Positions 37,173 through 44,131 of a DNA stretch of 64,000 nt are shown in pieces. The stretch is taken from positions 4,613 to 68,612 of the forward strand of contig CAKOXK010000002.1 of the NCBI GenBank assembly GCA_934130085.1, given 5' to 3'. Source of the stretch: an uncultured Clostridia bacterium. GTDB taxonomy: Bacteria; Bacillota; Clostridia; TANB77; CAG-508. The stretch's first letter is position 1, and each line of letters starts with the position of its first letter. The position numbers were made by a program, and so were the translations under genes. The notes under the pieces were generated by a model that was given only the letters and a program-made list of their open reading frames with translations, had not been told where the DNA came from and made no database searches.

Positions 37173-39023
37173 TTATTTTAAATGTAAAATAACTCCCGCA
37201 TTTAAATTTTGAATTAGTTCTTCGTTTTTTAAGCCTAATGATTCCTTTACTTCTTTTATAATCGCTTCTCTGTCGTAACCCTCATTGCAAATTAATAAAA
37301 TACCGTTTTCAATATCCTTACCATCGAATACTTTTTTAATATTTTCTTCATTTGCATTTCTAAGTCTCATTATGTATGAATTATCAATTTTAGTAAATAA
37401 GTAAATATCATCTAAAAATCTATTATTATTCTCATTAAAAACATATAGAGCTGGTACATCAGATATTTCTTCTACCCTTTCAGCAACATTATTCATTCTT
37501 TTAAAAGTAAAATCTAATTGCTTGCCTGTAAAAATTGGAGAAATAGTTGTAAACGTAAATATTAAAACTAATGCAATACTTGATACTGTACTAGGATTTA
37601 TAGAATTTCTTTTTTTGTGATTAATATTTGTATGGCTATCACGACTGCAATTCTCTGCTACCTTTTCCAAAACAAAGTTTGTGATATATATAATAAAAAT
37701 CATGGTAACAGAAATTATAGGCATCATGTATCTAAGTTCTTTGTATGGTGTAATTTTAGCAACTAATACAAAATACACGATCATAGGAAATAAAATTAAC
37801 TTTATTAATTTATTTACCTTCACACTAAAGTCAACAGTATCAATATTAGTATTAATATTAGTATTAGTCTTTGTGTTCATGTTTGTATTTATATTAATGT
37901 TATTTTTGTAATTTTTACTTTTCTGTCTAATAATTGCTAATAAGCTTATAATTGAAATTGCAATTTCTATCTTGCCAAATAAATTCTTTCCTAAAATTCC
38001 AAGATAGATTATAATATCTTTTCCCAAGGCTTTAAAATCAATAAAATTGCCTGTTGCTCCTACTCCTCTGTATCCATTAAAAATATGATTTATTGAATAC
38101 GGAAAAATAGCAAGTGATATTCCCGCAGCAACTACAAAAGTAGAAATATATTTTATAAGATTTTTGTATTCCTTATTTTTTATATATTTTATAACGAAAA
38201 TTATGAAAAGCACTCCAATATAAATCAACGTGTAATAATGAGTTAATGAGCTTAAAACCGTAGCTATAAGTACGGTGATTAAATCTTTAAACTCTAGCTC
38301 TTTTTTCTCATACAAGTTCATGTGAATATATGTTGAAATAAGCACAAACAAATTTGCAAGTTCATACATTCTTATATATGCACTCGTATCTAATGCCCCT
38401 AAGCAAAGTCCTGTAAAAAGCAATGTTAAAAGTGCTTTTTTATTATCTTTAAATAGCTTCTTTGCAATTAAAAATATAAAAACACTCGAAAAAGCATAAA
38501 TAATCATATTTAAAATAAGTCCAGACCATTTTGAAAAATTCCCCACAGTAAATAGGGATGCAATTCTAAGTAGCAAGTAAAATAATGGTGGATGAACATC
38601 ATTTTTTTGATTTTCATAAACTGGTTTAAAATTTGAGACTTCATCATTCCCAATTTCGAAATAATCTTTATAATAATCTTTTGAATGCCATGTATCATAA
38701 AAATCAGAATTATTGGTTATTTCTATTTTATTATAATTCATTAAGCCATAAGAATAAGCTTCATCCATGTGAAAATATTCTTTTCTATAGCCAACAAATA
38801 CTCTCACTGCAATTTGCAGTAAAACAATTACAATAAATAAAATTACAGTTAATCTCTTGCTAAAATCTTTTGTAGAAATGCTTTTTATATTTGTTCTATG
38901 TTTTGCATTAGAATCTTGCATGCTAAATTCCTTGTTATTAAAACTTTTTCTATTTTGCCTTCTATTATAAGGTTCTTTTTCTTCCAAAATATTGTTACTA
39001 GATGTTTCTTTGTTCATATACAT
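37173..39023 (-). CDS. GT-C-fold membrane glycosyltransferase-like protein (ArnT/PMT-like), putative
   Basis: 616 aa with more than 10 predicted TM helices and HMDEAYSYG in the first loop; internal NINTN low-complexity segment. Confidence 0.4.
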   Translation of the reverse strand: MYMNKETSSNNILEEKEPYNRRQNRKSFNNKEFSMQDSNAKHRTNIKSISTKDFSKRLTVILFIVIVLLQIAVRVFVGYRKEYFHMDEAYSYGLMNYNKIEITNNSDFYDTWHSKDYYKDYFEIGNDEVSNFKPVYENQKNDVHPPLFYLLLRIASLFTVGNFSKWSGLILNMIIYAFSSVFIFLIAKKLFKDNKKALLTLLFTGLCLGALDTSAYIRMYELANLFVLISTYIHMNLYEKKELEFKDLITVLIATVLSSLTHYYTLIYIGVLFIIFVIKYIKNKEYKNLIKYISTFVVAAGISLAIFPYSINHIFNGYRGVGATGNFIDFKALGKDIIIYLGILGKNLFGKIEIAISIISLLAIIRQKSKNYKNNININTNMNTKTNTNINTNIDTVDFSVKVNKLIKLILFPMIVYFVLVAKITPYKELRYMMPIISVTMIFIIYITNFVLEKVAENCSRDSHTNINHKKRNSINPSTVSSIALVLIFTFTTISPIFTGKQLDFTFKRMNNVAERVEEISDVPALYVFNENNNRFLDDIYLFTKIDNSYIMRLRNANEENIKKVFDGKDIENGILLICNEGYDREAIIKEVKESLGLKNEELIQNLNAGVILHLK

Positions 39024-39045: not shown

Positions 39046-39125
39046 CTTTTATTTATCTGCTTTTTATTTATACGTTTTTTATTTGTCCGTTTCTTATTTG
39101 TATGTTTTTTATTTGTGTTTTTTAG
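39046..39125. repeat. degenerate 14-15-bp tandem repeat (TTTTTATTTGTNCG-like, about 5 units) just upstream of the GT-C gene
   Basis: Visible by direct inspection. Confidence 0.6.
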
Positions 39126-39425: not shown

Positions 39426-41594
39426 CTAACCAGGCTCAGATATCTCATATTTGCTCATCCAGTAACCTGGTAACTCAACACCTGCAAAAGTAAATGCTTC
39501 AGGTACTTTATATATATGGTTTTCGTCTTCATGATTTGTAACATCCTTTGTTATAAAGTTAATGTCATATCCATTAGTACTTTTATCTATTTTATATTCA
39601 TATCTTGGTATCCACACCCAATATGCAATCTTGCCATTTGCTTTAGTTACAATGTTTGCCCATTTTCTTTGAGCATAATCATACCAATTTTGAGGTGCTG
39701 GTTGTGAAATTGGTATATCACTATGTTCTGTTCCATCATCATCCCAGTAAACATAATATGTGTTTTCTTTATCAAGATTATCTAAATTAACTTGTATTTT
39801 CTTTGATGATACGTTCTTTCTTCCTAACGGTATATTATCTTTCATTACACAAACATCATGATCTTTTGTTGAATCTATTCCAGTTATATTGCATGGCAAA
39901 ACGCCTGTAAATTTAAGATCTCCATCAATATATACTCTGTAGTCTTTTCCCTCTTCTTGGTTGTTTACTGAAACCGTTAGATTATTGTTGCAATCATAGC
40001 CTGTTGCGATTTCTTCTGCAGTATCTTTGGTCTCTGATATTTCATATTTGCTTATCCAATAACCTGATAATTCAACTCCCTTAAACGTAAATGCATCTGG
40101 TACTTTGTATATACTATTCTGACTGTTGCTATTAGTGAAATTTTTTGATACAAGTTCTAGACTTAGCCCTTCTTTTTGTGATGGCTCCATTTTATATCTA
40201 TAACGAGGAATCCATACCCAGAAAGTTACCATATTATTGGTCACAGTTACTATATTAGCATATTGTTTTTTACCATAGTTATACCAATTATCTGGAGCAG
40301 GACCTTTATCAATTCTGTTACCAATTTGCATATTTTCACCGTTCTCATCAAATGTTACATAATATGTGGCTTCTGGAGCCAAATTGCTTAAATCAACTAT
40401 CACCTTTTTTGTTGTAACCTGATTTCGTGCTATTATCTTACCATTTTTGGTTACACATATATCATATTTCTTATTTTCCTTTAGTCCGGTAATATCATGT
40501 GGTAAGCTCCCTTTATAATTTTCTATTCCATCTAGATAAACAGTGTAGTCTCCATTCTCCGTGTCATCACAATTTACAGTTATAAAATTAATATCAGTTC
40601 CAAGAGCTAATTGTGGTGAACCATTTTCGCAAACCTCATATTTGCTCATCCAGTAGCCTGCTAATTCCTGATTTGCAAATGTGAATGCTTCTGGTACTTG
40701 ATAATTTGAAGCAAGGCTTTCTGTTGTTCCATCTTCTTTTTTATATTCATTGGTTGTACTTATAAATCTTGCATCTACAGTTTGATCCGACTTAGTTATG
40801 TATGAATACCTTGGTATCCATACCCAATATGCAACCTGATTTCCTGTTACCGTTACTATATTTGCATACTTTTTCTGACTGCTACTATAATCATACCAAT
40901 CTGCTGGAGTATCTACCCTATCAATTCTGCCTGCTATACTTTGATTTCCGTTCTCATCATACGTTACATAGTATGTAGATGTAGGTTCCATATTTGATAA
41001 ATCTGGGGTTTGCATGAATACATCTCCAACTTTTTTGTAAGTTGTGCTTTCTGGAGTTTTATCACCTATATCTGTTTTTCCTCCATCATCTGAATCTTGT
41101 CCTTTGTTATCATCATCCTTACTGTCATCGCCACCATTTTTATCAACAAAATCTTGCCAGCTGTCATAGCTCCACACTGGAATATTTGCTTCAAAACACC
41201 ATTTAACACGTTTTTTATTGTTTGTATAAAAATAATATGTCTTGTTATTTTGAATGATTACTTCCTTTTCATAGTCGCTTTTTATTTCAGGTATAATCTT
41301 TTTTATTTTATCTTGCCCTACTAATCCAACACTTATTGTAAAATCAGGATTTTCAATTTGCTCCCCAGAAACATACATAGTTGCCTCTTCCATATATTTT
41401 TTCATCTGACTTACAAAAGCTGTTTTCTTGGTTCTTTCCAGTAAACCATTTTCACTAAAAACAGTAGCTATTGCAACGCCTGCAATAATTAGTAAAACTA
41501 TAATTGTAACTACAAGTGCTATTAAAGTTATACCATGGTTTTCCAAGCTGTTATTTTTATGTTTTAATTCAGGCTTTAACTTTTGTTTTTGCAT
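39426..41594 (-). CDS. type IV pilin-like (prepilin-type N-terminus) surface protein with three tandem ~200-aa repeat units; start overlaps the 3' end of the DGR RT gene
   Basis: N-terminus ...ENHGITLIALVVTIIVLLIIAGVAIA. The three repeats each end in GYWMSKYE(V/I) and contain WVWIPRY. The repeats are also visible at the DNA level (about 600-bp period). Confidence 0.6.
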   Translation of the reverse strand: MQKQKLKPELKHKNNSLENHGITLIALVVTIIVLLIIAGVAIATVFSENGLLERTKKTAFVSQMKKYMEEATMYVSGEQIENPDFTISVGLVGQDKIKKIIPEIKSDYEKEVIIQNNKTYYFYTNNKKRVKWCFEANIPVWSYDSWQDFVDKNGGDDSKDDDNKGQDSDDGGKTDIGDKTPESTTYKKVGDVFMQTPDLSNMEPTSTYYVTYDENGNQSIAGRIDRVDTPADWYDYSSSQKKYANIVTVTGNQVAYWVWIPRYSYITKSDQTVDARFISTTNEYKKEDGTTESLASNYQVPEAFTFANQELAGYWMSKYEVCENGSPQLALGTDINFITVNCDDTENGDYTVYLDGIENYKGSLPHDITGLKENKKYDICVTKNGKIIARNQVTTKKVIVDLSNLAPEATYYVTFDENGENMQIGNRIDKGPAPDNWYNYGKKQYANIVTVTNNMVTFWVWIPRYRYKMEPSQKEGLSLELVSKNFTNSNSQNSIYKVPDAFTFKGVELSGYWISKYEISETKDTAEEIATGYDCNNNLTVSVNNQEEGKDYRVYIDGDLKFTGVLPCNITGIDSTKDHDVCVMKDNIPLGRKNVSSKKIQVNLDNLDKENTYYVYWDDDGTEHSDIPISQPAPQNWYDYAQRKWANIVTKANGKIAYWVWIPRYEYKIDKSTNGYDINFITKDVTNHEDENHIYKVPEAFTFAGVELPGYWMSKYEISEPG

Positions 41595-42999: not shown

Positions 43000-43150
43000 T
43001 TAAAATTTTGAAACATCTCGCTTTCGTTTTTATTACTTGTAATTTGTTTCTTTAATGTTTTACCTGTTAAGGAAGGTGCTATACTTCTTTTGTACTTGTA
43101 CTTTTAGTCGAAAGGTTCCATGAAACCTTCCCCTCTTAAATTTATACAAG

Positions 43151-43290
43151 AGTCCCGAGCCAACACACAACACCGCACGAGACGAATTGTTACTGTTACT
43201 ATTACCATTGTTGTTATTATAGCCAAAGAGCGCATTGTTGCTACGTTTGAATACAGGGTTGCCAGAAGTAACAAAATTAGCGTTGGACGA
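43151..43290 (-). other. DGR template repeat (TR), 140 bp, intergenic between the target gene and avd
   Basis: 128/140 identity to 43473-43612. All 12 mismatches are at TR adenines on the coding (minus) strand. The TR is Asn-codon (AAC/AAT) rich in the target frame. Confidence 0.9.
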
Positions 43291-43468
43291 CAGTATAGTA
43301 CCTATGTTTTTAATTTATATTTTTTGAATATTTTATTAATATTATTTTTTGTTTTTTGTTTGTCTATTTTATGTATTTCAATTTATTCTTTATTATTATT
43401 TGTTTTTTTCATTTGTACTTTCGCAATTTATATTTTTTCGTCAATTGTTTTAAGTTCAAAGGGCAGAC

Positions 43469-44131
43469 TTAAAGTCCCGAGCCAACACACAACACCGCAC
43501 GAGACGAATCGCTACTGCTACTAACACCATTGTCGTTATTATAGCCAAAGAGCGCATTGTAGCTACGTTTGAATACAGGGCCGCCAGAAGTAACAAAACC
43601 AGCGCTGGACGAGCTTTTCCAGTTTTTGGTTTCTAGCGTAGCATCTCCTCTTTTTGCTACCTCTCCTGTATATATATTAACATATCTGCTATCTGCATTT
43701 TTCAATTTTGACATATAATCATTTGATGTATTGTAAATACCTGCTACATATTCGTATGTCCCATCTGCCATTTGAAAAATTCCTGTTGCATTGCCTGTTG
43801 TTGAAGCATCTGACCTACCTGATGGAGCACTTCCATAAGGTGATGCTGCAAGCATTGCTGCTGCTCCCCATTCAGTATTCTTAGCCATGTGTACATCAAC
43901 TCCATTATTGCTTGAATCTAAATAAGTGGTGCTATCTAATTGAGCTTTTTTACCTAGTGTTCCTCCTTCAACTTCCATTTGCCTTATTTTTACAAAGAAA
44001 TCATTTGCTGTTGTATTCTTTAAACTAGTTACCCCAGGTCTTGATTGAACCGCCGCATTTACTTTTCCTGTTAACATGAAAGCAGTTAAAATTCCAACAG
44101 TAAAAACTATTGCTGACTTTTTTATTTTCAT
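43469..44131 (-). CDS. DGR target protein: small secreted variable protein (220 aa, SPase-I-type signal peptide, C-terminal variable region)
   Basis: Signal peptide MKIKKSAIVFTVGILTAFMLTGKVNA; the last ~46 codons are the VR, homologous to the TR through the stop codon. Confidence 0.85.
   Translation of the reverse strand: MKIKKSAIVFTVGILTAFMLTGKVNAAVQSRPGVTSLKNTTANDFFVKIRQMEVEGGTLGKKAQLDSTTYLDSSNNGVDVHMAKNTEWGAAAMLAASPYGSAPSGRSDASTTGNATGIFQMADGTYEYVAGIYNTSNDYMSKLKNADSRYVNIYTGEVAKRGDATLETKNWKSSSSAGFVTSGGPVFKRSYNALFGYNNDNGVSSSSDSSRAVLCVGSGL
43473..43612 (-). other. DGR variable repeat (VR) at the 3' end of the target gene
   Basis: See the TR entry. Substitutions are at AAY codon positions 1 and 2 (for example TR AAT to VR GAT, AAC to AGC/GAC/TAC/GGC). 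Confidence 0.9.

Follow-up and report, generated by a model that had tools for sequence, protein, structure and literature searches.

What does a small, secreted protein gain from being rewritten by a retroelement, and where would such a protein act? This question is raised by a 64,000-nt stretch of DNA (the window) from an uncultured Clostridia bacterium (assembly GCA_934130085.1, contig CAKOXK010000002.1, positions 4,613 to 68,612 of the forward strand), in which an open reading frame (ORF) for a 220-aa protein adjoins the components of a diversity-generating retroelement (DGR). The original prediction, made from the sequence alone, described this ORF as an unusually small, free-standing DGR target. 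Our analysis indicates that the locus is a complete chromosomal DGR of an active lineage, that its target is a secreted protein with a predicted C-type-lectin (CLec) fold, and that the target may dock onto the product of a neighboring 722-aa ORF, termed pil722, as the hypervariable head of a surface stalk or pilus-like fiber. For this statement as a whole, we estimate a probability of about 0.6. That the locus is an active-lineage DGR and its target a secreted CLec protein is nearly certain, and the evidence leans cautiously toward the docking onto pil722.

The features of the locus are collected in Table 1. The translation of the target ORF is exactly the 220-aa protein that had been quoted. 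On the minus strand, the order is the target gene with its variable repeat (VR), the template repeat (TR), avd, the gene for the reverse transcriptase (RT), and then the 722-aa ORF; the RT gene overlaps avd by 16 nt and the 722-aa ORF by 19 nt. When the TR and the VR were compared on this strand, 12 mismatches were observed, each at a TR adenine, and the other 104 non-A positions were identical. The hypergeometric chance that all 12 mismatches fall on A, with 36 A in 140 nt, is ~1.7e-8. The TR reads SSNANFVTSGNPVFKRSNNALFGYNNNNGNSNSNNSSRAVLCVGSG, with 14 AAY codons and 21 A-containing codons in frame with the VR, which corresponds to a theoretical repertoire of ~10^19.6 protein variants. No second VR for this TR was found by blastn across the 64-kb window.

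Table 1. Coordinates of the features of the DGR locus within the window
Feature	Position	Strand	Description or basis
DGR target gene	43469..44131	-	Encodes a 220-aa secreted single-domain protein, a variable protein with a predicted C-type-lectin fold
Predicted Sec/signal peptidase I (SPase-I) signal peptide, codons 1-26, MKIKKSAIVFTVGILTAFMLTGKVNA/A	44054..44131	-	n/h/c regions and V-N-A cleavage motif
VR, codons S174-L220 (47 codons)	43473..43612	-	140-nt repeat; 12/12 mismatches at TR adenines
TR, intergenic between target and avd	43151..43290	-	140-nt direct repeat, 322 nt downstream of the VR on the coding strand
Stem-loop GAAGGTTTCATGGAACCTTTC, just 3' of the TR	43109..43130	-	Inverted repeat 43112-43129 and RNA fold
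avd, DGR accessory variability determinant, 119 aa	42640..42999	-	Pfam, NCBIfam, and PHROG matches
DGR reverse transcriptase, 359 aa	41576..42655	-	RVT_1, phrog_1423, motifs
pil722, 722-aa partner ORF	39426..41594	-	Pilin-like hydrophobic N-terminal helix HG/ITLIALVVTIIVLLIIAG; downstream of RT

The TR/VR homology extends into the last sense codon (CTT in the VR, CTC in the TR) and breaks off within it, a single base short of the TAA stop. The VR thus literally runs to the stop codon, as had been claimed. The C-terminal, TR-templated segment, which had been put at ~46 residues, is also real, but the peptide quoted for it starts three residues too early, as its WKS lies outside the repeat. The 3' 37 nt of the VR, a candidate segment for the initiation of mutagenic homing, are identical to the TR and G/T-rich. 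A classical GC-rich hairpin was not found after the VR; there is merely a weak AT-rich 7-bp inverted repeat (43449-43455 and 43467-43473) that straddles the stop codon. This repeat is a possible counterpart of the DGR target-site hairpin, and the stronger stem-loop that immediately follows the TR on its 3' side probably belongs to the DGR RNA spacer, possibly as a structured portion of the TR RNA.

The enzymes of the element are both recognizable. The avd product matched Pfam bAvd (9.6e-26, 90.8 bits against a cutoff of 40), NCBIfam DivGenRetAVD (1.9e-28, 98.8 bits against a cutoff of 80), and phrog_3206 ('Avd protein of DGR'). The RT matched RVT_1 (2.2e-20) and phrog_1423 (3.5e-113), and contains IGNYTSQ, of the [LIV]GxxxSQ type, at residues 189-195 and YMDD at residues 221-224. 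Promoter and terminator scans yielded nothing above chance. The locus is a complete chromosomal DGR of textbook organization.

The N-terminus of the target consists of an n-region (MKIKK), a 17-residue hydrophobic core (SAIVFTVGILTAFMLTG), and a c-region (KVNA/A) that conforms to the -3/-1 (V..A) rule. The signal-peptide call is rule-based and draws on family conservation: an equivalent hydrophobic N-terminus was observed in 77 of 81 target-family members, and AxA-type cleavage sites were seen in the 25 family N-termini listed. It is also consistent with the AlphaFold2 (AF2) model, in which residues 2-20 are a helix placed with moderate confidence only (pLDDT 67-69) and the linker that follows, at residues 22-24, has very low confidence. 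The classical signal peptide of the original prediction is thus borne out. Downstream of the cleavage site, the family shares a conserved mature N-terminus, A-L/V-Q-S/A-R/K-P. The sole Cys of the target, C215, lies within the invariant part of the VR. The lipobox or cell-wall anchoring motif that had been suggested as a point to check was absent, with a lipobox in 0/81 and LPXTG in 0/81 family members, which rules out lipoprotein or sortase anchoring of the target. From these sequence features, the target would be exported via Sec and, upon cleavage of the 26-residue signal peptide, would yield a mature domain of ~194 residues with no anchor of its own.

For the fold of the target, which the original prediction had left open as not assignable by eye, profile databases offered no guide: no Pfam or NCBIfam match was obtained at E <= 0.1-1, and no PHROG match. 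An exhaustive profile search collected a family of 3092 clusters (50% identity), of which 255 matched at E <= 1e-30, and nearly all of the best 150 clusters are 210-260 aa in length and match from end to end. The AF2 model, built on the 81-sequence family alignment, reached a pLDDT of 89.5 and a pTM of 0.82, with the VR blocks at 89-97 and four beta strands predicted in the VR. The known structures listed against this model, with their values in parentheses, were TaqVP (9.5), TvpA (7.6), CarF (7.4), Mtd (6.8), PvdO (6.7), OvoA (FGE-like domain; 6.6), the FGE paralogue 1y4j (6.5), and dozens of classical C-type lectins (5-6). The DGR variable proteins TaqVP and TvpA ranked first and second, and the model and the structure comparison together answer the question of the fold. 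We concluded that the target, as modeled, has a C-type-lectin fold of the FGE subtype, in a divergent and minimal version of the kind found in DGR variable proteins.

Several results count against this assignment. It rests on a predicted model, and TaqVP, which was also the top rank in Foldseek, was not significant there (E 0.12, TMq 0.47). No match between the target and PDB sequences was obtained with either the single sequence or the family profile, nor did the target match the FGE-sulfatase (PF03781) or DUF1566 profiles. In its distant relatives, in which the module is fused to other segments, an FGE-sulfatase match was detected below threshold (16.9-19.3 bits against a cutoff of 23.3).

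The family also includes members of quite different build. The giant proteins P0236 (4516 aa), P0240 (3713 aa), and P0319 (2338 aa) contain 4-8 tandem copies of the module, indicating that it also occurs in very large surface proteins, and a 2204-aa protein (L050, 1675-8289) carries a single terminal copy. In the rabbit-gut 'Bacilli' metagenome-assembled genome (MAG) Lapin-012__bin84, >15 loci matched the module with no detectable TR/VR (L042, L048, L051, L053, L056, L060, L062, L064-L066, L068, L071, L074, L075, L077, and L078), which is a large paralogous expansion. In the one of these that was inspected, L042, a ~635-aa protein has a transmembrane (TM) segment at its N-terminus and the module as its C-terminal domain.

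To survey potential partners, the proteins of the window were compared by tblastn with 80 species-representative genome loci encoding target relatives, from uncultured gut Clostridia and Bacilli MAGs of rabbit, Hadza and Nepali human, goat, and buffalo samples. A pil722 homolog was observed on the same strand and <=2.6 kb from the target in 28 of the 34 full-length close relatives, and the gap was often 12-80 nt. This gene pair had been overlooked when the target was taken for a free-standing module. The pairing in the 34 relatives is independent of the presence of a DGR, and an A-biased TR/VR pair was found in just 6 of the 80 loci. These results indicate that the gene pair is the conserved unit and the DGR an occasional addition. 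Its site of insertion also differs: the TR-avd-RT block lies between the target and the stalk gene in the window, L005, L014, and L033, and after both genes in L002 and L007.

The predicted architecture of pil722 resembles a stalk. Beyond the N-terminal helix, the predicted structure contains three similar beta domains of ~130 aa, the first two of which are each followed by an FN3-like domain (~65 aa), and three internal repeats of ~200 aa were found, as DNA repeat families ~600 nt apart. The N-terminus showed only a match at E 0.1 to that of GspG, and no other pilin-motif ORF was found in the 64-kb window. The pil722 family has at least 1527 members; among the best 120 listed, none is informatively named and one is called 'hypothetical protein'. 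The target and pil722 themselves are not the halves of a duplicated gene, an origin that was ruled out as hhalign found no homology between them (probability 35%).

Domain fusions provide a second line of evidence. In distant relatives of the target, the lectin module is the C-terminal domain of 420-635-aa proteins. Some of these have genuine prepilin motifs at the N-terminus, which exceed the Pfam N_methyl cutoff of 21.2 in L040 (27.9 bits) and L045 (28.7 bits) and fall below it in L038. Other fused relatives have a plain TM anchor at the N-terminus. The fusions constitute 'Rosetta-stone' evidence suggesting that the lectin module works on a pilin-like or membrane-anchored stalk.

In the proposed mechanism, the TR would be transcribed, and the Avd-RT complex, by analogy with the DGR family, would copy the TR RNA into cDNA with misincorporation opposite adenines. 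The adenine-mutagenized cDNA would then replace the VR, rewriting up to 21 codons (14 AAY) within the last 47 residues of the 220-aa target. The target would be exported through Sec and relieved of its signal peptide, and the mature CLec domain of ~194 residues would dock on pil722 at the cell surface, this role being proposed for pil722 because the target has no lipid, sortase, or transmembrane anchor. The target would thereby serve as the exchangeable hypervariable binding head of an FN3-repeat stalk or pilus-like fiber, with which the cell could bind changing gut ligands, for example glycans, other cells, or particles. The DGR anatomy, the restriction of changes to adenines, the diversification between strains, the fold as modeled, and the conserved pairing with its fusions are shown by the present data; secretion, physical association with pil722, an adhesion function, and the identity of the ligands are what we infer here.

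Some observations weigh against this display model. The N-terminus of pil722 (HG/ITLIALVV) has Ala at +5, and the family consensus, KG/ITLIALVITIIVLLILAGV, conserves this Ala in place of the Glu5 of type IV pilins. Pfam N_methyl gave no match in pil722. Because of these two features, pil722 may be a plain membrane-anchored stalk and not a pilin. Pilus assembly genes were found neither in the 64-kb window nor within 10 kb of the pair in L087-L089. Moreover, 6 of the 34 relatives have no adjacent pil722 homolog. The more specific proposal that the target is a detachable, DGR-diversified tip or adaptor of a type-IV-pilin-like fiber in gut Firmicutes, built with the FN3-repeat protein, is put forward only tentatively.

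The same six relatives would be expected if the target were a free-standing secreted or loosely cell-wall-associated lectin-like binder, with pil722 unrelated or merely co-regulated. Such a binder would also account for the target having its own Sec signal and no recognizable docking or anchoring motif, and for the lack of homology between the target and pil722 families (hhalign), and it has a precedent in BovT and BfiT of Bacteroides, which were found to be soluble periplasmic proteins that do not reside in pili (bioRxiv 10.1101/2024.11.15.621889). However, same-strand adjacency in 28/34 genomes is maintained across 29-63% identity and varied neighborhoods, and in the fusions the lectin module is attached to N-termini that are pilin-like or TM-anchored. 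The strong conservation of the mature N-terminus suggests an interaction surface, and a diffusible product would offer the diversifying cell no obvious benefit. We consider a free binder doubtful on these grounds, and display of the target on pil722 the better account.

Downstream of pil722, the next gene (37173-39023, minus strand) encodes a GT-C type glycosyltransferase (Pfam PMT_2), and between the two genes lies a short tandem repeat (39047-39106) that is T-rich and consists of three copies with a period of 15 nt. PMT_2 genes also flank the target/stalk pair in the unrelated contig L088 (6938-8479 and 13494-15005). The stalk or the lectin-fold protein could be glycosylated.

Evidence that the element has diversified its target came from comparisons among relatives. 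The 11 closest relatives share 88-94% identity with the target overall; the identity rises to 92.5-99.4% outside the VR and drops to 62-76% inside it. In each relative, 10-15 of the 11-18 VR differences affect codons with an adenine in the TR. Different VRs were seen even between strains that share 98-99% identity in the rest of the protein. Near-identity outside the VR combined with divergence inside it indicates that the element has been active in the lineage. In L085, which has the same gene order as the window, the TR/VR pair exhibited 13 of 15 mismatches at A. The TR of L085 differs from that of the window at eight non-A positions, and the VR of L085 shares five of these eight states. This co-variation indicates that information was transferred from TR to VR in each lineage, as directional transfer predicts.

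An alternative is that the cassette is a fossil, in which the DGR diversified the target in the past and is now inactive in this strain, leaving the present VR as a frozen allele. A single assembled sequence cannot show ongoing activity, and decay does occur in the lineage, as the 'type B' loci L082, L084, and L086 have lost avd and RT. In the window, however, the avd and RT ORFs are of full length, their catalytic motifs are intact, and the TR and VR differ at adenines only, with no drift at the remaining 104 positions; the distinct VRs of otherwise nearly identical strains likewise speak against a frozen allele. We regard a fossil as improbable.

The type B loci belong to relatives that are 88-89% identical and occupy another chromosomal site, with a 750-aa stalk homolog, the target, and then rpsF-ssb-rpsR. 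These loci keep a 135-nt TR remnant, followed by an N-terminal remnant of the 722-aa gene (5520-6056 in L082/L083, 5520-5914 in L084, and 1386-1786 in L086). In L082/L083, the latter remnant is annotated as a 35-aa ORF (MQKLKQRLEYKHNSIKNYGITLIALAVTI...). Deletion seems to have removed avd, RT, and most of the 722-aa gene. Among the mismatches between TR and VR in L082, L084, and L086 are 7-16 non-A changes, and hence the type B element looks decayed.

Two further observations concern the boundaries of the element and its enzymes. Codon 173 (43613-43615), which lies just outside the TR homology and where the TR has CTG, varies among S, G, N, and D (AGC, GGC, AAC, and GAC) in close relatives. 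This variation resembles that of AAC under adenine mutagenesis and may point to a TR that was once longer or to a boundary of cDNA integration that varies. A TR/VR pair at L001 (6535-6816) is likewise A-biased, with 11 of its 13 mismatches at A, and has no avd or RT within 6 kb; the stalk gene directly follows. The TR of L001 is either an orphan or served by a DGR acting in trans from elsewhere in the genome.

The avd and RT genes always resemble those of phage DGRs, and a viral origin of the locus was considered in the light of its genomic context. The locus, in DNA of ~29% GC, is flanked by housekeeping genes, namely YtxC, SDR, rplQ, rpoA, rpsD/K/M, FtsK, RNase J, RadA, DisA, HrcA, and DnaK; no phage structural genes flank it in the window. 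Although Avd and RT match the phage DGR families phrog_3206 and phrog_1423 and many gut DGRs are phage-borne (PMC8144416), a phage or prophage DGR with the target as a receptor-binding (tail-fiber tip) protein like Mtd of Bordetella phage BPP-1 is very unlikely and was rejected, given the housekeeping flanks without phage structural genes, the lack of a PHROG match for the target, the absence of target relatives from 2.9 million viral contigs (IMG/VR), and the Sec signal peptide, for which a virion protein would have no use.

The target had been described as unusually small and as a member of a less explored class of compact secreted targets. Neither description is supported by published surveys and its own family, in which ~220 aa is ordinary and single-domain or short, signal-bearing targets are already represented. 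In the survey of Wu et al. (2018; PMC5758913), DGR targets range from 44 to 2697 aa, and the smallest comprise nothing beyond a CLec or immunoglobulin fold. In the same survey, no additional motif is attached to 52 of 71 FGE-type targets, and roughly one in two DUF1566-type targets is short. TvpA, AvpA, and TaqVP are single-domain proteins (PMC6328139), and the small Bacteroides variable proteins BovT and BfiT have been localized experimentally (bioRxiv 10.1101/2024.11.15.621889). An N-terminal TM segment or signal peptide is present in most cellular DGR target clusters (Roux et al., 2021; PMC8144416). The nanoarchaeal AvpA resembles the target in having ~250 aa and a single CLec domain (PMC5006420). 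Its size and structure show that compact DGR targets have already been characterized structurally. AvpA differs from the target in being archaeal and in its internal VR (residues 181-203), which is followed by 46 residues (PMC5006420).

The DGR targets of gut Firmicutes are numerous and almost entirely uncharacterized, and this locus gives a predicted fold and a testable cellular context to a large, unnamed family of ~220-aa secreted proteins. If the pairing with pil722 is physical, it would extend targeted hypermutation of pilus or fiber adhesins, recently demonstrated for the Type V pili of Bacteroides, to another phylum and another pilus system, and the target would offer a compact scaffold of ~194 residues, with ~10^19.6 theoretical variants, on which DGR-based binding proteins could be studied or engineered. 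If the target is in addition a tip subunit, it would represent a second, independently evolved case of a DGR-driven pilus adhesin after the Type V pili of Bacteroides, and the families of 3092 and at least 1527 clusters would define a two-component adhesin that is widespread among uncultured gut Clostridia and Bacilli. Without a physical pairing, the locus would simply add to the standard DGRs whose target is a minimal CLec protein.

Among the known systems, the closest in the predicted structure is TaqVP of Thermus aquaticus (PDB 5VF4), a 381-aa protein with three large inserts and an N-terminal wrap, in contrast to the ~194 aa of the mature target; the two share 16% sequence identity and no detectable sequence homology, and the Foldseek match is not significant. 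Mtd of Bordetella phage BPP-1 is a trimeric phage tail-fiber protein of 381 aa with extra N-terminal domains, whereas the target is cellular, signal-peptide-bearing, and single-domain. TvpA is a lipoprotein, whereas the target has no lipobox. TvpA, from Treponema denticola (PDB 2Y3C), and category 'b' of Wu et al. represent the stand-alone FGE-type CLec, whereas the target has no FGE-sulfatase match. The position of the VR at the extreme C-terminus is common to the target, TaqVP, TvpA, and Mtd (PMC6328139), and by analogy the variable residues of the target may form a solvent-exposed binding face.

No report that specifically connects DGRs with type IV pili was found in our literature search; one survey mentions rare VRs in proteins with a 'GspG-type pilin' domain (PMC11661182). 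By analogy, the Type V pilus DGRs of Bacteroides are the closest functional counterpart of the proposed pairing of the target with pil722. In BfrT, BthT, and BunT, gut DGRs diversify the CLec head of a Type V pilus tip adhesin, whereas BovT and BfiT are small and have no pilin domain, and the Bacteroides target genes adjoin stalk or anchor genes (bioRxiv 10.1101/2024.11.15.621889). The Bacteroides system belongs to another phylum and uses Type V lipoprotein pilins, whereas the stalk proposed here would be type-IV-pilin-like or a TM-anchored FN3 protein. There is no sequence relationship between the Bacteroides targets and the present one, and here the head and the stalk are encoded by separate genes, with the DGR inserted between them. 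Overall, the mechanism at this locus, a standard DGR acting on a target of the CLec class, is already known, and the pairing of the target with pil722 is the new point.

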